From a virus (taxonomy: Duplodnaviria > Heunggongvirae > Uroviricota > Caudoviricetes), in the IMG/VR virus record IMGVR_UViG_2737471860_000002, positions 1 to 26,886 of that record: a stretch of DNA of 26,886 nucleotides; one strand, given 5' to 3'. Shown piece by piece: positions 17,621-23,875 of this stretch. The notes beneath the pieces were generated by a model. It did not search any database. It was not told the DNA's origin and saw only the letters and a list, made by a program, of their open reading frames with translations. The number at the start of each line of letters is the position of its first letter. Positions within the stretch are counted from its first letter, which is position 1. The position numbers were made by a program, and so were the translations under genes.

Positions 17621-19152
17621 AGTAAACCTCCCTCATTTTTCAGGCCGCGTGTCAGCTTCATCTGGCGGCGCGCGTTGCGTTCTTCCGGTTTTGCCGGGCG
17701 GTTCAGGCGGTGCAGCTCGTAACGGTGGCAGTCATCTTTACTGGCAAGGAAGCCCAGGAAAATGGCCACAGCGGCGTCGCCGTGACGCTTGCGGCCATCG
17801 CTGCCTTTAGTACGGGTATCGTCAATGCCGGGAACGCCACGCAGTAACTGAATGGCCCCGAGGTCATTGATCACGTCTTCATGCTTCGGAAGGATCAGCT
17901 CATCATCTTCAAATGCTGCACGGAAACGGGGCATGTTTTCGCGGTAGAACGCCACGGACAGCATCACCTGTTCCACTTCGTCGCCGTACCGCTCCGCCGC
18001 CTGTTCTGCCAGATACTGACCATTCCCCCGCGCATCCATTTTGATACCGTCACGACGGGGCAGACGATCGCAAAGCCAGAACAGCACCTGCTCCTGCTGT
18101 TTAAACGGCACATTGCCAAGCTCAACCAGGAACGGCACCTCGCGGGTGGTGTCATTGTTCACCGTCACCGGGGCCAGTACGGTCAGGTCACCCGAACGCG
18201 CAAAGTCTTCCCCCAGACAGTGGCGCAGGTTCTTCGGGAGTTTTTCCAGTTCAGGGCGCACCACTGTTTCCAGCCATTCCCGGATATCTGCCCGGCGCTG
18301 GCTTTCCGTCAGTGCGTTAAATTCCGGTGTGCCGGTAAAGCGCAACACTTTCCCGGTGCCACGGGCCGCACGTTCACGCAGTGAGCGGGGGATATACGTG
18401 CCGCCGCCGTTTTTCGGGACGCAGTAATATTCCTCCAGTGCGTCTTCGCGGGTGGCGGTATTTCGCAGCAGGCCTTCTTTCCATTCCGCCTCGGCTTCCG
18501 GTGACCACACCATGCCGCGCACCTGACAGATACGCCGGTACAGCCCGTCATTGCAGGCGTCGTCCAGCGTGATGGTGTGAATGCTGTAATCTTTTTTGCC
18601 CGCGCGGCTTTCCTGAATCAGCTGGTTAAACAGGTTGTCCACGCCGTCATGGGTGGAAATAAGGCGAATTTTGCCGCCCCATGTTTTCAGCGGCAGCACA
18701 GCCTTCAGCAGCTCGTCCAGTTTTTCATGGAACGCGGCTTCGTCGATGGTGACATTCCCCTGCATCCCGCGAATGTTGCTCGGGTTGCTGGACAGTGCCT
18801 TGACCTTAAAACCGCTGGCGAAGTACACGACGAACGTCAGAATGGCCTTGTCTTCGTCGGTGATCACTTCCTCGCAGATTTCTTCCGCTGCCGCATTAAA
18901 CGCTTTCGCCCACATCGCCACGGCGTCGATAAATTCGCGGGCCATCTCCTTATTCGAACCGATATAAAAGTGATCGCGCCCGCCGTCTTCCTTCTTCAGC
19001 GATGCCGTCAGTGCCGCATCTGCCGCCTCCGCCCAGGTTAAACCGGTACGGCGGGATTTCTCTGCAATTTTCAGGTCGGCATCATCCGCCACCCAGCGTT
19101 TCTGATACGGCAGCAGGACATCGTATTCACTGAATGTGTTCATCCTGGTCAT
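17617..19152 (-). CDS. Terminase large subunit
   Basis: 511-aa ORF after the small terminase (4-nt overlap); N-terminal Walker-A-like KSRRTGLT and acidic C-terminal nuclease-like region. Confidence 0.75.
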   Translation of the reverse strand: MTRMNTFSEYDVLLPYQKRWVADDADLKIAEKSRRTGLTWAEAADAALTASLKKEDGGRDHFYIGSNKEMAREFIDAVAMWAKAFNAAAEEICEEVITDEDKAILTFVVYFASGFKVKALSSNPSNIRGMQGNVTIDEAAFHEKLDELLKAVLPLKTWGGKIRLISTHDGVDNLFNQLIQESRAGKKDYSIHTITLDDACNDGLYRRICQVRGMVWSPEAEAEWKEGLLRNTATREDALEEYYCVPKNGGGTYIPRSLRERAARGTGKVLRFTGTPEFNALTESQRRADIREWLETVVRPELEKLPKNLRHCLGEDFARSGDLTVLAPVTVNNDTTREVPFLVELGNVPFKQQEQVLFWLCDRLPRRDGIKMDARGNGQYLAEQAAERYGDEVEQVMLSVAFYRENMPRFRAAFEDDELILPKHEDVINDLGAIQLLRGVPGIDDTRTKGSDGRKRHGDAAVAIFLGFLASKDDCHRYELHRLNRPAKPEERNARRQMKLTRGLKNEGGLL

Positions 19153-19730
19153 ACACTAATCCCCAGTATTTCACGTTTGATGGTGTCAGCCGCACCGCCT
19201 GACAGACCGCCTGTTCTGACCAGCTCTTCGGTTTTCTCTGCCATCTCCTGCGCAAACGCATCGCGGATCGCTTTCTCGCGTTTATGGCTGGTCATGGCTG
19301 CCGCTTCCAGACGCTGGGCAACCAGCGCCAGTTGCCCCAGCGCCTTCGGTGCAACGGGCTTGTCGTCTTCTGCCATCGACATGGACGTTTCAAAGGCCAG
19401 CGTTTTTACAAACTCCATCAGCAGCTTGCCGACGTCTGACGTCGGCGCGGAACCCAGCTTTGCCGCCCAGACTTCGGCCATTTCGCGGGAGGCGCGGATT
19501 TTGGCCCCGACTTTTTCCATGCGGATGGCATAGCGGTTTAAGCCCGTCCGGCTTAACTGCATCTCTTCCGGCAGGTTATGTTCGTCAATCAGGGCGTTGA
19601 TGGCTTCGCGGATTTCTTCCTGTGTGTGCCGCTTTTCCCGCAGCATCTGATGCAACTGCTCCCGGATGCTGTCCGGGAGTAAATCCACTTTGGAAAGACG
19701 GCCACGGGTGGGGCGTTGTTCATTTTCCAT
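19149..19730 (-). CDS. Terminase small subunit (Mu gpD-like)
   Basis: ORF track gives a start at 19751; I prefer the ATG at 19730 (MENEQRPTRG...), preceded by AGGAGG 7 nt upstream. Helix-rich basic protein ahead of the large terminase. Confidence 0.65.
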   Translation of the reverse strand: MENEQRPTRGRLSKVDLLPDSIREQLHQMLREKRHTQEEIREAINALIDEHNLPEEMQLSRTGLNRYAIRMEKVGAKIRASREMAEVWAAKLGSAPTSDVGKLLMEFVKTLAFETSMSMAEDDKPVAPKALGQLALVAQRLEAAAMTSHKREKAIRDAFAQEMAEKTEELVRTGGLSGGAADTIKREILGISV

Positions 19731-19867
19731 GTGTGCCCTCCTGTTGCTCACTACGCTGTGAACTTTCGTATGCAGATTTCAGCGCGCCACTCTGGATTTC
19801 ACGCCATGTCAGGTTGTGCGCCAGACGGCGGAGTTCATCACGGGACGCTTTACTTATCGGATTCTTT

Positions 19868-20167
19868 TTACGGTTCACGACGGCCCCCGTCTTCAGTTCC
19901 CGGTGTTTTCAGACCGGCGTATATTTCTTCGCGAACGGACCGGATATCCTTACCCAGCAGCTTCCACAGCCGCGCACATGCCGGTGATGAACGCAGGGCA
20001 CATTTCATGGGGGTATCCGGTGCATCCGGGTTCCATGGCTTTCCTGTATGTTGTTCGTATGCACGGACAATGGCGTTTTGCTCGATATCTGCCATGACAA
20101 GGCAGTACGCCAGCTGCCGCACGACGGCCCGTTCTCCGCGACTTAACGGCTTCAGTTTTCGGGTCAT
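19868..20167 (-). CDS. Hypothetical protein (99 aa)
   Basis: ORF tightly packed after the 97-aa gene (3-nt spacing); no family recognised. Confidence 0.5.
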   Translation of the reverse strand: MTRKLKPLSRGERAVVRQLAYCLVMADIEQNAIVRAYEQHTGKPWNPDAPDTPMKCALRSSPACARLWKLLGKDIRSVREEIYAGLKTPGTEDGGRREP

Positions 20168-20169
20168 GC

Positions 20170-20463
20170 TCAGTCTCTCGCACGGGGTTTTTTAACGCCC
20201 GGCACACCGGACAGGCCATTTGCCACATCCTCGCCGCTGCCGGTGATTTCAGCCACGTAACAGCCGCCCACATCAGACAGACGAACCAGCCCCTGCTCGC
20301 GCAACCATGCAAGCTGGGTGCGTACCACATCACGGGATACCTTATGACCGTAAGCCTGAAGGCAGGTCTGCAACACGGATTCATTCGCGCTGTCGCCACA
20401 GTCCAGCAGGGAACGCAGCAACACAAGACGACGGTCTTCAGTGAGGATCTCTTTCATCGCCAT
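20170..20463 (-). CDS. Hypothetical protein, possible winged-helix DNA-binding fold (97 aa)
   Basis: TAATG-type overlap with the upstream gene; RRLVLLRSLL...VSRDVVRTQLAWLREQGLV looks wHTH-like. Inference only. Confidence 0.5.
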   Translation of the reverse strand: MAMKEILTEDRRLVLLRSLLDCGDSANESVLQTCLQAYGHKVSRDVVRTQLAWLREQGLVRLSDVGGCYVAEITGSGEDVANGLSGVPGVKKPRARD

Positions 20464-20768
20464 TAATTTTTTTCCTTTAACTCGTTCTCTAATAACAAAT
20501 CACTGATGCGGGATACCTGGCGGATGGATGGCCCCAGCTCTTTGATTTCTCCCCGCAGGTTGCTGATATCCAGTTGCAGACGGTGGAACTCATCACGATC
20601 AGGTAGCTGATGTACCTGGCTTTCCATCACCGACACGCGGGAACGCAACAAATCAAACTCTTCGCGTTTGACGTACGTCTTCGCCAGAATCAACTGAAGC
20701 AGGTTTATTGCTGTCATTAACAGCGCCCACAGAATGGGCCAGTTGGCTCTGATCATTTCCCAGGACAC
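20463..20768 (-). CDS. Small membrane protein with N-terminal TM helix and coiled coil (i-spanin-like or Mu-specific membrane protein)
   Basis: 101 aa; hydrophobic WPILWALLMTAINLLQLILA followed by a heptad-like charged region. Confidence 0.5.
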   Translation of the reverse strand: MSWEMIRANWPILWALLMTAINLLQLILAKTYVKREEFDLLRSRVSVMESQVHQLPDRDEFHRLQLDISNLRGEIKELGPSIRQVSRISDLLLENELKEKN

Positions 20769-20980
20769 GTCTTCCTCCTGCGTTCCCGCATCTGCTGACA
20801 GTCAATACAGGTCACCACATCCGGCAGCGCCGCAAGGCGCTGTACCGGAATAACGTTCCCGCAGTCATTGCAGAAGCCCCGACTGTGGGGCGCTTCTTTT
20901 GTCCGTATCTGCCAGGCTTTAACGACGCTCTGACGCTCGTTCAGAACCACTTCACTGATGCGGTCGATTTCGTCGGTCAT
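20753..20980 (-). CDS. TraR/DksA-family C4 zinc-finger protein
   Basis: 75 aa with CNDCG...(17 aa)...CIDCQ, the CxxC-x17-CxxC spacing characteristic of this family. Confidence 0.7.
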   Translation of the reverse strand: MTDEIDRISEVVLNERQSVVKAWQIRTKEAPHSRGFCNDCGNVIPVQRLAALPDVVTCIDCQQMRERRRKTCPGK

Positions 20981-21585
20981 TTCGGCCCCGCAGATATTTT
21001 GTGACGACTTGATTTGCTGTAACGGGCAAAGCCGTCAAGGGTTCGCACGCCGAGATAGCCCAGCGCAGGGGTAAGCAACATCAGCGTGATATCCCAGTCC
21101 GGTGATGGCATATGCAGCGTGATACCTCTGGCACCGGCAATGGCTCCGGCAATCTGGCCGCAGGAAAGCAACAGCACATAGGCAAGACTGCTGTAACAGG
21201 ACAGGCGGGCCAGCAACGGGCGCGTCTGGCGCACATAGCTGTCCGTGGCGTTGTCACCATTGCGGATGGTTTCCTGCTGTTCGTGGTGTGCGGCCTGCTG
21301 ATCAGCCAGCACCAGCTTCTGCCGTTCCACCTCCAGTTGTTGCAACTGAATTTTCAGGGTTTCCAGCTGCATCAGTTGCTCCGGTGACAGCATCACCAGC
21401 TTTTGTTCCAGAATGCGTTGCTGTTCAGCCACCGGCAGGCTTTCCCGGACGCTTTCCACCATACCGGCCACCGAGTCAGCGGCGGCAGATGTACTGCCAC
21501 CAAACCAGCGCCCGACGGAACGAATCAGCCCCGGCCCGGCTTTCAGCAGAACAGAGGCGATGCCTGAAAGGGTTAACGGATCCAT
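20977..21585 (-). CDS. Hypothetical lysis-region protein with central coiled coil and two C-terminal hydrophobic segments
   Basis: 202-aa ORF; 4-nt overlap with the downstream TraR-like gene; composition read from translation. Confidence 0.5.
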   Translation of the reverse strand: MDPLTLSGIASVLLKAGPGLIRSVGRWFGGSTSAAADSVAGMVESVRESLPVAEQQRILEQKLVMLSPEQLMQLETLKIQLQQLEVERQKLVLADQQAAHHEQQETIRNGDNATDSYVRQTRPLLARLSCYSSLAYVLLLSCGQIAGAIAGARGITLHMPSPDWDITLMLLTPALGYLGVRTLDGFARYSKSSRHKISAGPK

Positions 21586-21983
21586 GAATCCCCCTTATGA
21601 AAACGGCGCTGATGTTTATAAAGTGCCGCGCAAAAAATACCGCCCAGCCAGAACGCCAGCTGATAAGGCTCCTTCAGATAAAGAATGCCGAATGTCAGCA
21701 TGAAAAAACCAACGGCCCAGACCACCCATGACCACACGACAATTCGAAGGGAAGCGGCCCGGAAACGCCTTTTGGGTTGCAGGCGATAAGGTACGTTGCC
21801 CAGCTGGAAACTGTGAATCAGACAGAGTGTCGCGCCGTATGCCAGCACCATGACCGCAAACGCCCGCCATCCGGCAAAACAGCTCGCCAGAAAAAGTACT
21901 GTCGACAGCCCCAGAAACGACCACTGGCACAACATAAAGCGGGAGTAAATAACGCGAACAAAAAGACTATTCATTCTGTGCAT
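21573..21983 (-). CDS. Polytopic membrane protein (about 4 TM segments), holin-like candidate
   Basis: ORF track gives a longer 193-aa version; I favour the start at 21983 (MHRMNSLFV...), with AAGGA about 9 nt upstream, because the N-terminal extension overlaps the 75-aa ORF and looks non-protein-like. Confidence 0.5.
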   Translation of the reverse strand: MHRMNSLFVRVIYSRFMLCQWSFLGLSTVLFLASCFAGWRAFAVMVLAYGATLCLIHSFQLGNVPYRLQPKRRFRAASLRIVVWSWVVWAVGFFMLTFGILYLKEPYQLAFWLGGIFCAALYKHQRRFHKGDSWIR

Positions 21984-22194
21984 TGAGTTTTTCCTTGTAC
22001 TTCTGGCACTGCCAGAAAATGTCCCGTGTATCCACGGAGTTCCAGCCACGCATGTAGTAGCTGGCGTGTGTGCCGTCATGGCCGGTATAGTCCAGCGGTT
22101 TCGGGGGCGGACCTCCGGCCATGCGGTGCAGAACCTCCTGACGCAGGCGGTCACGCCGCCCGGCTTTCAGTGAGGCATCCCAGCCTTTACCCAT
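21967..22194 (-). CDS. Small basic hypothetical protein (75 aa) immediately after the endolysin
   Basis: 8-nt overlap with the endolysin stop, consistent with translational coupling. Confidence 0.45.
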   Translation of the reverse strand: MGKGWDASLKAGRRDRLRQEVLHRMAGGPPPKPLDYTGHDGTHASYYMRGWNSVDTRDIFWQCQKYKEKLNAQNE

Positions 22195-22792
22195 ATCCCC
22201 CCCGCGTGGCGGACATGATGCCTGGAGGGGTATTGATGATTTCCAGACAGGCGTCGGTCAGCTTTTCCATGCGGTTAAACCATCCGTTCAGGTATTTGCC
22301 CTGGGCGGGTTTTGATTTGATGATGTCGGCATAAAAGCGGGAACGACGGACAATGCAGCGGGTCAGCAACCAGTCCGGGGTGGACAGGCTCACGGCCTTA
22401 CGGGTACGCGGGCCGATGATGCCGTCAGCATCCACATCAGCGGCTTCCTGCAAAATCCTGATGGCTTTTTTAACGCCATGCTGAACCGCCGCATCGAACA
22501 CAAACATCGCCACGCCATCAGGCCACTGGTCACATCCGGCAGGCAGCCAGTAATCGCGCCAGTAAATCTGCGCAACCTGTTCGCGGGTCAAATCCCTGAT
22601 GCGGGTATCCGGTTTGCCGTCGCCGTTGACATCAGTTTTGCCATCAATCACACCGTCGCGGCGGTCAGAAATGCCGTATTTGGTTTCACCGCCACGGTCA
22701 GTGGGGTCATTGACATAGACGCCTTCGATATCGGGACGCAGAATAAAATTCAGCGCATGCTCAAAGGCTGGGGAGAATTTTTGATTTTCCAT
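22187..22792 (-). CDS. Endolysin, GH108-type lysozyme with C-terminal peptidoglycan-binding domain
   Basis: 201 aa; N-terminal ...DIEGVYVNDPTDRGGETKYGISD... matches the GH108 signature (EGGY, NDP.D.GG.T..GI) as I recall it; first gene after the Mor-like gene. Confidence 0.75.
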   Translation of the reverse strand: MENQKFSPAFEHALNFILRPDIEGVYVNDPTDRGGETKYGISDRRDGVIDGKTDVNGDGKPDTRIRDLTREQVAQIYWRDYWLPAGCDQWPDGVAMFVFDAAVQHGVKKAIRILQEAADVDADGIIGPRTRKAVSLSTPDWLLTRCIVRRSRFYADIIKSKPAQGKYLNGWFNRMEKLTDACLEIINTPPGIMSATRGGYG

Positions 22793-22804
22793 AAAAGCAC
22801 CTGT

Positions 22805-22831
22805 GAAGCAGATTTAAACGTGGTCTGCTTC
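22805..22831 (-). promoter_or_regulatory. Hairpin (8-bp stem GAAGCAGA/TCTGCTTC, 11-nt loop) immediately upstream of the endolysin ribosome-binding site
   Basis: Inverted repeat read directly at 22805-22812 and 22824-22831. Confidence 0.4.
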
Positions 22832-22847
22832 ATGGTGCCGGAGGCAT

Positions 22848-22871
22848 AAAAAAAGCCGGATTTACCGGCTT
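22848..22871 (-). terminator. Intrinsic-terminator-like hairpin plus U7 tract directly downstream of the Mor-like gene; copy B of the duplicated 38-bp element
   Basis: Stem 22853-22859 pairs with 22865-22871; plus-strand A7 at 22848-22854. The wider element GGAGGCA-N-AAAAAAAGCCGGATTTACCGGCTTCA-N-TGA spans 22840-22877. Confidence 0.55.
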
Positions 22872-22877
22872 CATTGA

Positions 22878-23327
22878 TTAAGGGCGTCGTGGCGGACGAC
22901 GAACGGGGTGAGGCAGGTTCGGGGAGTGGTAGAACAAATCCGGCTGGTATTTATTACGCTCCAGACGCCGCATCCGTTTGATGGCCTTGTAGACGGTTTT
23001 ATACGTCACTCCGTAACGCTGAACCAGTTCAGGAATATTATGGCCGTTAAAATCACGCCAGATACGCATATCCCGGACAAGATTCTCCAGAATATTCCCC
23101 CTCGGAACATAAACCTGCATCCCGCCAATATGGCGACAAATCGCCACAACCAGCTCAAGGGAATGAGCAGGGTCTGCGCCAATCCGGGCCAGCTCTTTAC
23201 GCAGCAGTGCGTTCAGTTCAGAAAGTAACGCCGGATAAGCGGTGTTTTCCTGGTAATCGTTAAGATATTCCAGAACGCTGTCGTCCCGAAGGTCTTCGAA
23301 TAAATCCTGCTCTTTCATCTGTTTCAT
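22878..23327 (-). CDS. mor: Mor/C-family transcriptional activator
   Basis: 149 aa; strong resemblance by memory to Mu Mor (DLF.DL.DD..L..L, ALLAELN.LLR.EL.R.G.DPAHSLE.VVAIC.H.GG.QVY.PRG, RD.RIW.DFNG.N..EL...YGVT..TVYKAI.RMRR); lies directly after gemA as in Mu. Confidence 0.7.
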   Translation of the reverse strand: MKQMKEQDLFEDLRDDSVLEYLNDYQENTAYPALLSELNALLRKELARIGADPAHSLELVVAICRHIGGMQVYVPRGNILENLVRDMRIWRDFNGHNIPELVQRYGVTYKTVYKAIKRMRRLERNKYQPDLFYHSPNLPHPVRRPPRRP

Positions 23328-23875
23328 ACAGCAATTCTCCCGCTGTTTCGTGCGCGGGCATATGCACTGGTCAGTGCATCATAGCCGCGCAGCTCCCGCC
23401 CGGATGGGCTTACAGGTAAAGGCACACCATGTCGGGCAAAGGCTTCCCGGATGCAGCGCATATGCCACTGTTTGAGCGTTTCGAGCACAACCTGCAACGA
23501 TTTCCCGTGACACCAGGCCAGAGTGGAAACACCCTGGCCGCCATTACGTCTGGCCGTCAGGCGTTCAACGTATTTGTCCAGCGCGGCGTCGCTGCTATCA
23601 GCGACAAAGCCATCCTGAAACATCTGCTGCCAGATTTTATAAATCTTCTCGCGCGGTGTGACATACCCCTTAAAGCGACGGCGGGGATGTTTTTTCTGCT
23701 TTTTAAAACCGCGCTCTTTCATGGCATCGAGCACACGTTCCAGTTGTGCGACGGTCAGCTCGCGGCAACTGGTCTTGCCTGTGCACTGCACCAGAAAGGC
23801 GCGGTAAGTGTCATCGTCGAGTTGTAGATCACGACGGGCGACATGAATTAATTTAATCAGGGATGTGCGATTCAT
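23324..23875 (-). CDS. gemA: GemA-like protein (Mu gp16 family)
   Basis: ORF track gives a start at 23911; I prefer the ATG at 23875 (MNRTSLIKLIHVARRDLQLDDDTYRAF...), preceded by GGAGG. Position upstream of mor as in Mu. Confidence 0.65.
   Translation of the reverse strand: MNRTSLIKLIHVARRDLQLDDDTYRAFLVQCTGKTSCRELTVAQLERVLDAMKERGFKKQKKHPRRRFKGYVTPREKIYKIWQQMFQDGFVADSSDAALDKYVERLTARRNGGQGVSTLAWCHGKSLQVVLETLKQWHMRCIREAFARHGVPLPVSPSGRELRGYDALTSAYARARNSGRIAV

Follow-up and report, generated by a model that had tools for sequence, protein, structure and literature searches.

A probable Mu-like gp24-gp25-gp26 block with lineage-specific additions upstream of the terminase genes of an Escherichia coli prophage

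Do the small genes lying between the lysis and packaging genes of a Mu-like prophage belong to the core content of such phages, or are they later additions, and what do they encode? This question arose from a preliminary description of a 26,886-nt stretch of viral DNA (hereafter the window, i.e. the whole stretch that was analyzed). It described positions 19868-20980 as small putative regulators embedded between membrane proteins and the small terminase, namely a TraR/DksA-type zinc-finger protein, a possible winged-helix protein and a 99-aa hypothetical protein, and it left undecided whether these are core Mu-like genes.

Results and Discussion

Prophage context and gene layout

The window shows 95-97% identity to Mu-like prophages residing in E. 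coli chromosomes, which carry transposase, GemA, Mor, portal and tail genes. A megablast search of the window against sequenced phages gave no match, and the lineage was seen solely in the form of prophages, plus one unannotated Klebsiella phage (71% identity). The interval 19868-20980 holds four genes, with a fifth extending 11 nt into it from the left; all of them are located on the minus strand. The genes of the interval and the neighboring elements used as context are:

20753-20980, minus strand: TraR/DksA-type C4 zinc-finger protein, 75 aa, at the position of Mu gp24 (PF01258, phrog_54, TIGR02419)
20463-20768, minus strand: DUF2730 protein, 101 aa, Mu gp25 (releasin) family (PF10805)
20170-20463, minus strand: Mu gp26 orthologue, 97 aa, winged helix, VpaChn25_0724 family (NF050184, identity to Mu gp26)
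19868-20167, minus strand: 99-aa protein, all-helical by prediction, from a very small family (phrog_8988)
19720-19878, minus strand: 52-aa truncated paralogue of the 99-aa gene (identity to the 99-aa N-terminus)
19149-19730, minus strand (context): small terminase subunit of the Mu gp27 family (PF11985, E 2e-54; 47% identity to Mu gp27)
20977-21585, minus strand (context): 202-aa holin-like protein (phrog_1544, E 8e-59)
22852-22872, minus strand (context): terminator-like G+C-rich dyad followed by a T-run (8 pairs, 5 of them G-C)

The three ORFs named in the preliminary description do exist within the limits given there, and RefSeq annotates these three likewise in E. coli prophages of 96-97% identity. 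No copy of the TraR-like, gp26-like and 99-aa genes is disrupted in the E. coli prophage clade, and dN/dS values (0.26, 0.03 and 0.19, respectively, and 0.19 for the 52-aa gene) are part of a pattern of purifying selection acting on all five ORFs. With all copies intact and dN/dS low, these ORFs are not chance products. That gene list was nevertheless incomplete, as it missed the DUF2730 gene (20463-20768) and the 52-aa ORF that overlaps the edge. Overlapping ORFs on the plus strand or in other frames, e.g. 19716-20195 (plus) and 19950-20426 (minus), were rejected as by-products of G+C-rich coding DNA, being unannotated in every relative. PADLOC returned no defence-system match for the seven proteins checked, and no Rfam RNA family was found within positions 19000-23500.

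The 202-aa protein, encoded directly upstream of the TraR-like gene, consists of a coiled coil and C-terminal membrane segments, and it gave a weak match, under the cut-off, to GTA_holin_3TM (E 7e-4). At every junction from its gene to the small terminase gene, start and stop codons overlap or lie 2 nt apart. The ATG of the TraR-like gene overlaps the stop codon of the 202-aa gene as ATGA, and the DUF2730 gene starts with GTG, is preceded by AGGAGG and overlaps the TraR-like gene by 16 nt. In the small terminase gene, AGGAGG precedes the ATG at 19730 by 6 nt, and PGAP uses the equivalent start; ATG 19730, not GTG 19751, is the likely start codon.

No sigma-70 consensus promoter was found within positions 19000-23500. 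The dyad at 22852-22872 closely follows the Mor-family gene and precedes the endolysin gene by 60 nt; it is nearly identical to an element found after Mu mor. It is likely the 5' boundary of the transcription unit holding the genes of the interval, whose transcription would most likely require induction and start at an activator-dependent promoter beside the Mor-family gene.

Taken as a whole, the interval probably covers the final part of a lysis cassette and leads up to the terminase genes within the late (lysis-head) operon of an E. coli Mu-like transposable prophage. It is composed of the counterparts of Mu gp24-gp25-gp26 and a lineage-specific insertion. Such a layout is already known, and the genes are new members of known families. 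Gene identities, synteny and fold are established here, and it is biochemical activities and expression timing that we infer.

Core genes and lineage-specific additions

In the word-indexed protein search, all relatives of the TraR-like and 99-aa proteins showed at least 63% identity, which makes this search unfit for judging conservation. Slot conservation was therefore scored on loci fetched through gp26, and the counts refer to 78 species-level loci. A DUF2730 gene is present directly upstream of gp26 in 74 of the 78 loci, a C4 zinc-finger ORF upstream of DUF2730 in 63, and a small terminase gene downstream of gp26 in all 78, while the gap between gp26 and the terminase gene is filled by the 99-aa family in only 9. 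The same gene order is repeated in transposable phages of Vibrio, Pseudomonas and Burkholderia. These counts answer the question raised at the outset: the core content of Mu-like phages includes the TraR slot, DUF2730 and gp26, and the pair of 99-aa and 52-aa genes was added in this lineage. The preliminary description spoke of embedded regulators; the interval is nothing special and corresponds to the standard gp24-gp25-gp26 stretch of Mu-like phages. As it stands, this result matters little: it improves how a frequent type of E. coli prophage is annotated and settles which of its genes are core and which were added.

The 99-aa protein is a member of phrog_8988 (E 1.2e-41, residues 1-91), a family with no defined function, and gave no match in Pfam, NCBIfam, PADLOC or PDB. 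Its family is very small: within a set of 1.84 billion proteins, only 17 representatives reach E<=1e-3. A further eight proteins, 887-1683 aa long and matching the query in several stretches, were not counted as small homologues. A designed TPR repeat, the sole PDB match of the family profile, was dismissed as spurious, and the AlphaFold model (pLDDT 60.6) was too poor for a fold search. Nothing in the analysis supports the earlier listing of this protein among regulators. The 52-aa ORF, which overlaps each of its neighbors by 11 nt and is annotated by PGAP in relatives, matches the N-terminal part of the 99-aa protein with 39% identity across 38 aa (E 2e-8). Three variants of the slot were recognized: (i) 99-aa plus 52-aa genes, (ii) a 95-aa gene alone and (iii) a 52-aa gene alone; among otherwise ~95% identical prophages, the 52-aa ORF may be present, absent or alone.

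Absence from Mu, occurrence in 9 of the 78 loci and polymorphism among near-identical prophages define the 99-aa and 52-aa genes as accessory, lineage-specific additions, which would have been inserted as variable genes between gp26 and the terminase gene. A polymorphic slot, a truncated copy, and a protein with a poor structure model and no known domain might also be expected of non-functional leftovers of recombination in a variable spot. We consider such an origin highly improbable, as the low dN/dS values of both genes are accompanied by intact reading frames in 10/10 distinct 99-aa and 8/8 distinct 52-aa alleles. Moreover, homologues of the same length (29-48% identity) occupy the same position in prophages of Klebsiella, Serratia, Kluyvera, Raoultella and Brenneria, and relatives with 31-40% identity exist elsewhere. 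Accessory genes maintained by selection are the reading that we retain.

The gp26 orthologue

The 97-aa protein shares 61% identity over 94 aa with Mu gp26 (E 6e-41), and it belongs to the VpaChn25_0724 family (phrog_436; NF050184, 120.7 bits, cut-off 65). Its AlphaFold model (pLDDT 92.1, pTM 0.83) has the topology H1-b1-H2-H3-b2-b3-H4, and the top Foldseek matches were all winged-helix DNA binders. The predicted structure thus bears out the earlier suggestion of a possible winged helix, and the curated Mu record likewise names gp26 a "winged HTH domain-containing protein". The dN/dS of gp26 is 0.03, and it ranks with the most strongly constrained small genes of Mu-like phages.

Judging by its modelled fold, the protein would bind DNA. 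The gp26 orthologue, which always accompanies the small terminase, most likely acts on phage DNA, either in packaging, as gene order suggests, or in the control of packaging and head genes. Alternatively, it may be a transcription factor of the ArsR/MarR type directed at phage late genes or host genes and not a packaging accessory. We regard this as possible but doubtful. Many database entries label the family as ArsR family regulators, and the fold matches include the DNA-binding domains of MarR, ArsR/HlyU, PadR and Fur; however, AspA and TubR, which bind centromeres, are matched as well, and the 97-aa orthologue has no ligand or dimerization domain beyond the winged helix. In the only experimental paper on the family, deletion of the homologue carried by a prophage remnant of Vibrio parahaemolyticus had pleiotropic effects on the host, altering growth, motility and the transcriptome (PMC7756092), but these phenotypes are indirect. 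Genomic position also speaks against such a transcription factor: gp26 lies upstream of a small terminase gene in all surveyed loci, with a DUF3486-type small terminase at most 2.5 kb after it in 78/78 species-level loci, no more than 60 nt intervening in 66 of them, and it also stands beside unrelated small-terminase types (loci L032-L034 and Pseudomonas phage Fc02). Action on phage DNA, as outlined above, remains the preferred reading.

The TraR-type zinc-finger protein

The assignment of the 75-aa protein to the TraR family, already made in the preliminary description, is upheld by sequence comparisons. The protein matched PF01258 (42.3 bits, cut-off 24.9, E 7.5e-11), phrog_54 (E 1e-19) and, marginally, with only 0.7 bits to spare, TIGR02419 (60.4 bits, cut-off 59.7). 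Residues 2-70 align with TraR of PDB 5w1s in identical numbering (E 1.5e-6), and the four cysteines (C37, C40, C58 and C61; CxxC, 17 residues, CxxC) occupy the TraR positions. At the N-terminus (MTDEIDRI), D3 and D6 are present and the DxxDxA motif is incomplete, with A8 replaced by Ile here and in all close E. coli relatives; Ala at position 8 is found in more distant homologues from the slot. R48 is kept and R49 is replaced by Leu. Fourteen residues follow C61, of which QQMRERRRK aligns with QAYQERQRK of TraR, and the E66-K70 helix of TraR, part of the C-terminal helix that contacts beta Si1, is kept in the alignment.

Five phage homologues of TraR bind RNA polymerase (RNAP) and inhibit rrnB P1, D3 and D6 are required in both TraR and lambda Orf73, and R48 contacts the rim helices of RNAP (PMC9239242). 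By homology with these proteins, binding and control of RNAP by the 75-aa protein are plausible, and an action on ppGpp-sensitive promoters may be suggested. Its N-terminal helix, with D3 and D6, would enter the secondary channel, the zinc-ribbon domain would use R48 to dock on the rim helices, and contact with the beta lobe would be made by the C-terminal helix. Control of this kind would be independent of ppGpp and would lower the output of ribosomal promoters in the late lytic phase. For P2 Orf82, whose activity is lower, the absence of A8 was named as a possible contributing factor (PMC9239242), and R49 is the beta'Si3 contact of TraR, needed for activation. Since both positions differ in the 75-aa protein, it is expected to be less active or to inhibit without activating. 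In addition, lambda Orf73 is made early, from pL (PMC9239242), whereas this TraR homologue of a Mu-like phage is placed in a late operon, which makes the gain from a shutdown of ribosome synthesis less obvious.

Loss of the zinc finger in homologues, which would speak against the TraR assignment, was not observed: the CxxC...CxxC pattern is present in 80/80 distinct slot proteins, with the 17-residue spacing in 79 of them. The strict DxxDxA motif occurs in only 33/80, and the C-terminal tail is nearly absent in about one third. No clean rule emerged when the zinc-finger type was cross-tabulated against the endolysin type. The zinc ribbon is the only universal element of the slot, and Mu gp24 keeps the position without D3/D6 and the C-terminal helix. 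These features, the A8I and R49L changes, and translational coupling to DUF2730 through the 16-nt overlap are what one would see if the 75-aa protein did not act on RNAP and were a zinc ribbon serving its lysis or morphogenesis neighbors, e.g. as a partner of DUF2730. We nevertheless judge this unlikely. The protein encoded in the window is not degenerate, since it aligns with TraR over the full length and keeps D3, D6, R48 and the basic C-terminal helix, and RNAP was bound by every TraR homologue tested so far (PMC9239242). Furthermore, a partner protein and RNAP binding are compatible: TraR of VP882, which binds QisA, depends on its RNAP motif all the same. An RNAP-directed TraR homologue, perhaps of reduced activity, thus remains the more probable reading.

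The DUF2730 protein

The gene overlooked previously encodes a member of the releasin family, as judged from its sequence: residues 4-98 match positions 1-102 of PF10805 (E 1.1e-30), and the protein is 28% identical to Mu gp25 (E 4e-10). Close to its N-terminus there is a hydrophobic stretch (approximately residues 10-29; WPILWALLMTAINLLQLILA), followed by KTYVKR. The protein is predicted to have an N-terminal transmembrane segment in N-out/C-in orientation and a cytoplasmic coiled coil, and would be a Mu releasin-family protein tethered to the membrane on its cytoplasmic side. Because of this membrane anchor and the kinship with Mu gp25, the interval does not consist of soluble regulators alone, and its portrayal as a set of regulators has to be given up, one gene belonging to a family of membrane-tethered lysis proteins.

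A position no more than five genes downstream of the endolysin gene is a criterion taken from PMC9239132, and the DUF2730 gene is the fifth gene after that of the GH108 endolysin. The releasin role of DUF2730 was demonstrated only with a signal-anchor-release (SAR) endolysin, in the case of Mu gp25 (Chamblee et al. 2022, PMC9239132). The endolysin encoded here is composed of GH108 and PG_binding_3 domains, and its N-terminus is polar (MENQKFSPAFEH...), with no hydrophobic leader and no SAR domain. The Mu-type lysis role and the releasin mechanism are therefore not transferable to the DUF2730 protein of this prophage, which offers a case of the DUF2730 family being retained beside a non-SAR endolysin.

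This retention in Mu-like phages with non-SAR endolysins would be explained if DUF2730 were paired with the TraR-type protein. Such a pair may link RNAP control through the secondary channel to a membrane step that times lysis. The full proposal, in which the two proteins form a functional pair like TraR-QisA and gp26, separately, joins the small terminase in recognizing the packaging site, is speculative and in our estimate distinctly improbable.

Comparison with known systems

TraR of the F plasmid (73 aa) and the window protein (75 aa) have their three parts in the same register. Within the zinc ribbon they share G41, N42, I44, P45, R48 and P53, and a basic C-terminal helix with E66, R67, R69 and K70 is common to both; unlike TraR, the window protein has Ile at A8 and Leu at R49. 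Both genes reside on mobile elements of gammaproteobacteria in which RNAP has the Si1 and Si3 insertions. The phage homologues of TraR available for comparison are: (i) lambda Orf73, (ii) P2 Orf82, (iii) VHML Orf8, (iv) VP882 Orf61/TraR and (v) Gp34 of X. bovienii. The lambda gene belongs to an early operon and traR of F to the transfer operon, whereas the TraR-like gene of the window lies in a late lysis-packaging operon.

With Mu, the prophage shares the gene order zinc-finger protein, DUF2730, winged helix, small terminase and large terminase; the Mu-type block was also found in D108, SfMu, Vibrio phage martha 12B12, D3112-like phages of Pseudomonas and Burkholderia phage KS10. Mu gp24 is reduced to the zinc ribbon, lacks both D3/D6 and the C-terminal helix and gives no Pfam match, which indicates that the slot can persist without the features that insert into the channel. 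Like Mu gp25, the protein encoded in the window is of DUF2730 type over its full length and has a predicted N-terminal transmembrane segment with K/R residues after it. Differences from Mu lie around this block. In Mu, a SAR endolysin and spanins are encoded just upstream, and nothing separates gp26 from gp27, whereas the prophage of the window has a GH108 endolysin gene placed before the gp18 homologue, holin-like membrane proteins and the 99-/52-aa insertion, and has no separate C activator.

Phage VP882 offers a further parallel, in that its traR homologue adjoins, and is co-transcribed with, a gene for a small protein, QisA (bioRxiv 10.64898/2026.07.27.740977). The qisA-traR genes of VP882 are under the control of the lysogeny repressor and act before lysis, whereas the TraR-DUF2730 gene pair of the window is located in a late operon.

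Identity of the prophage

Chromosomal prophages 95-97% identical to the window at 19100-22900 were found in 51 of 5,426 complete E. coli genomes. The matching element of strain STEC383 (locus L001) carries, in order, tail-fibre, portal, terminase and lysis genes, Mor, GemA, Gam, the B ATPase, the transposase and a repressor region. Since this counterpart spans tail-fibre genes to transposase and repressor region, the window element is, by its gene content, a Mu-like transposable prophage. The end of the STEC383 prophage (L001 32413-33261) adjoins a truncated potE, which fits a transposable phage inserted in a host gene. Megablast matched the window to no sequenced phage, and a more sensitive search returned an unannotated Klebsiella phage (71% identity) and patchy matches (~69%) to Mu, D108 and SfMu.

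Genes between the lysis and packaging modules

All genes discussed here lie on the minus strand of the window.

Genes of the region in transcription order
22187-22792, minus strand, endolysin
21967-22194, minus strand, homologue of Mu gp18, 75 aa
21573-21983, minus strand, membrane protein, 136 aa
20977-21585, minus strand, 202-aa protein
20753-20980, minus strand, zinc-finger ORF, 75 aa
20463-20768, minus strand, DUF2730 ORF, 101 aa
20170-20463, minus strand, orthologue of Mu gp26, 97 aa
19868-20167, minus strand, 99-aa ORF
19720-19878, minus strand, 52-aa ORF
19149-19730 (or 19751), minus strand, small terminase

The preliminary description named three ORFs at 19868-20980, and all of them are present, the limits coinciding with the stop codon of the 99-aa ORF and the zinc-finger start codon. 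It omitted the central 101-aa ORF and the 52-aa ORF overlapping the left edge; with these two additions, the observation is confirmed. RefSeq annotation in relatives contains the same ORFs. In the E. coli clade (18 IMG/VR prophage contigs and two RefSeq prophages) the full-length copies are all intact, with dN/dS values of 0.26 (zinc finger), 0.08 (101 aa), 0.03 (97 aa), 0.19 (99 aa), 0.19 (52 aa) and 0.08 (small terminase). On these grounds the five ORFs are real genes. The longest small terminase ORF starts with GTG at 19751. The ATG at 19730 follows an AGGAGG by 6 nt and serves as the start in PGAP annotation of relatives, which makes 193 aa a more probable protein length than 200 aa.

The zinc-finger protein and RNA polymerase

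The assignment of the 75-aa protein to the TraR/DksA-type C4 zinc fingers holds. It is recognised by Pfam PF01258 (42.3 bits, threshold 24.9), by phrog_54 and, by a small margin, by TIGR02419 (the model named 'phage/conjugal plasmid C4 zinc finger protein, TraR family'; 60.4 bits, threshold 59.7), and its best match among solved structures is F-plasmid TraR (residues 2-70 to 2-70, E 1.5e-6), followed by DksA. The two proteins share a common numbering and are identical at D3, D6, C37, C40, G41, N42, I44, P45, R48, P53, C58, C61, Q62, E66, R67, R69 and K70; they differ at positions 8 and 49, which are Ile and Leu in the window protein.

TraR contacts RNA polymerase through three elements (Gopalkrishnan and colleagues, PMC9239242): the N-terminal helix, whose DxxDxA motif extends to the active-site region; the zinc-ribbon domain, which places R48 on the rim helices and R49 on beta'Si3; and the C-terminal helix on beta Si1. 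D3 and D6 are required in both TraR and lambda Orf73, and five TraR homologues encoded by phages bind the E. coli enzyme and act as inhibitors at ribosomal promoters (PMC9239242). Of these elements, D3, D6, R48 and the C-terminal helix are all found in the window protein. R49 has been linked to activation by TraR, and in P2 Orf82, which lacks A8, the incomplete motif was offered as a possible contributor to lower activity (PMC9239242). Given Ile8 and Leu49, we infer that the window homologue most likely inhibits sensitive host promoters, with activation reduced or absent.

The same position upstream of DUF2730 (the slot) is occupied in Mu by gp24. The zinc-finger motif is conserved in homologues: none of the 80 distinct slot proteins has lost any of the four cysteines, and 79 separate the two pairs by 17 residues. 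The strict DxxDxA motif occurs in 33 of the 80 (many others are one change away), and about a third have fewer than 8 residues after the last cysteine. Mu gp24 (L003 3025-3219) has the cysteine spacing of TraR but lacks D3, D6 and the C-terminal helix; no Pfam family matches it, but the HMM built iteratively from slot proteins still picks it up at E 8e-6. These traits place it at the degenerate end of the slot range, as a probable TraR relative that has decayed. In the curated Mu record it is still annotated as hypothetical. [quoted passage not shown]

The DUF2730 protein and the lysis genes

The 101-aa protein matches DUF2730 over its full length (E 1e-30) and Mu gp25 (E 4e-10); at its N-terminus, basic residues come after a hydrophobic segment. 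In Mu, gp25 serves as the 'releasin', without which the signal-anchor-release (SAR) endolysin is not freed from the membrane (PMC9239132). The window endolysin consists of GH108 and peptidoglycan-binding (PG_binding_3) domains, with a polar N-terminus and no SAR domain; therefore, unlike in Mu, no membrane-anchored endolysin would be available for release. As DUF2730 proteins also occur alongside cytoplasmic endolysins, where their role was left open (PMC9239132), the gene is a DUF2730/releasin family member by sequence, to which the releasin mechanism is not transferred. A TraR-DUF2730 partnership is conceivable, because VP882 TraR acts in complex with the product of an adjacent gene, the RNA-polymerase motif still being needed (bioRxiv 10.64898/2026.07.27.740977).

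The endolysin gene is flanked by the Mor gene and the gp18 homologue; in Mu its place is after gp18-gp19-gp20-C. No homologue of the Mu-type spanin (gp23) was found by tblastn. The 136-aa membrane protein (21573-21983) shows 39-41% identity in some prophages, whose neighbouring genes are otherwise 90-100% identical, and 85-99% in others, a pattern that looks like cassette replacement within the lysis region.

The winged-helix protein

The 97-aa protein, 61% identical to Mu gp26 ('winged HTH domain-containing protein' in the curated Mu record), passes NCBIfam NF050184. About 300 homologues were found across Gammaproteobacteria, in which the core is invariant and the C-terminal tail, VPGVKKPR, is conserved. 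The description of the 97-aa protein as a possible winged-helix protein can be firmed up: AlphaFold models it with confidence (pLDDT 92.1, pTM 0.83; order helix-strand-helix-helix-hairpin), and Foldseek returned only winged-helix DNA binders (STIV F93, MarR-type BpsR, the centromere binders AspA and TubR, and ArsR/HlyU, PadR and Fur domains), the viral library adding nothing specific. Experimental work on the family comes from one paper, in which deletion from a Vibrio parahaemolyticus prophage remnant is reported to have had pleiotropic effects, which do not reveal the mechanism (PMC7756092).

Among the comparison loci, L032-L034 (5304-5891) and L116 (3222-3770) carry gp26-like winged-helix genes directly upstream of small terminase candidates. 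Because the candidates of L032-L034 do not match the iterated gp27-family (DUF3486-type) HMM, gp26 seems to be linked to the packaging module generally, not to a single terminase family.

Expression of the region

Every junction from the 202-aa gene through the terminase is overlapping or a 2-nt gap, and good Shine-Dalgarno sequences precede the DUF2730 GTG and the terminase ATG. No sigma-70 consensus promoter was found on either strand of 19000-23500 (3.1 expected from shuffles). The sole strong terminator-like site on the coding strand (22872-22852) directly follows the Mor-family gene, 60 nt upstream of the endolysin gene, and has a nearly identical counterpart, also a dyad with a T-run, after mor in Mu. 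The Mor-family protein (22878-23327) is 63% identical to Mu Mor and 32% to Mu C; Mor/C-family genes are single-copy, and a separate C gene is absent, in both the window and the complete STEC383 prophage. The lone activator and the dyad preceding the endolysin gene suggest a two-step rather than three-step transcription cascade. Together with the packed junctions and lack of sigma-70 promoters, they indicate that the lysis genes, those of 19720-20980 and the packaging genes may belong to a single late unit that depends on an activator and begins about 60 nt before the endolysin gene. The window TraR homologue would then be late, whereas lambda Orf73 is expressed early, from pL (PMC9239242).

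Mor-family proteins of the E. coli prophages form two allelic groups (73-81% and 91-100% identity to the window); the flanking genes stay >90% identical (prophages L010, L011, L014-L016, L018, L019 and L021).

Core content and lineage-specific additions

The 99-aa protein matches a single family, phrog_8988, and nothing in Pfam, NCBIfam, PADLOC or PDB. When 1.84 billion representatives were scanned in full with HMMER, 17 matched at E<=1e-3, seven of them of 91-97 aa and 31-40% identical; the AlphaFold model is poor (pLDDT 60.6) and all-helical. The 52-aa ORF matches the N-terminal 38 residues of its 99-aa neighbour at 39% identity (E 2e-8) and has the same 11-nt overlap at both of its junctions, which identifies it, at the sequence level, as a truncated tandem copy. 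In near-identical E. coli prophages (L004-L021) the gp26-terminase gap holds 99- and 52-aa genes, a 95-aa variant alone or the 52-aa gene alone; this polymorphism (19720-20167) and the equal overlaps are consistent with tandem duplication and deletion.

The survey covered 31 viral contigs together with 80 loci from genomes, each species being represented by a single genome; all were fetched through gp26 and searched with HMMs iterated from the window proteins; the 78 species-level loci with sufficient upstream sequence were scored.

Conservation of the gene order among the 78 scored loci
DUF2730 ORF ending at the gp26 start: 74/78
C4 zinc-finger ORF just 5' of DUF2730: 63/78
Small terminase <=2.5 kb downstream of gp26: 78/78
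gp26-terminase gap <=60 nt: 66/78
99-aa family member in the gp26-terminase gap: 9/78

The nine loci with the 99-aa family are all from Enterobacterales (Serratia, Kluyvera, Klebsiella, Raoultella, Pluralibacter and Brenneria). The block corresponds to Mu gp24-gp25-gp26, and in Mu no gene lies between gp26 and the small terminase. Vibrio phages and Pseudomonas phage Fc02 share the order zinc finger, membrane or unassigned protein, ~100-aa protein (winged-helix where annotated) and terminase. These counts and comparisons, with the gap polymorphism, mark the TraR slot, DUF2730 and gp26 as core content of transposable phages and the 99/52-aa pair as a lineage-specific, fast-changing addition. The interpretation in the preliminary description is partly supported: the zinc-finger and winged-helix identities stand, and the putative regulators lie in standard Mu-like content. 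All the genes belong to known families, and their arrangement is already known: the same order appears in a table published in 2008 for Burkholderia phage KS10, whose dksA/traR gene was noted there (PMC2628397).
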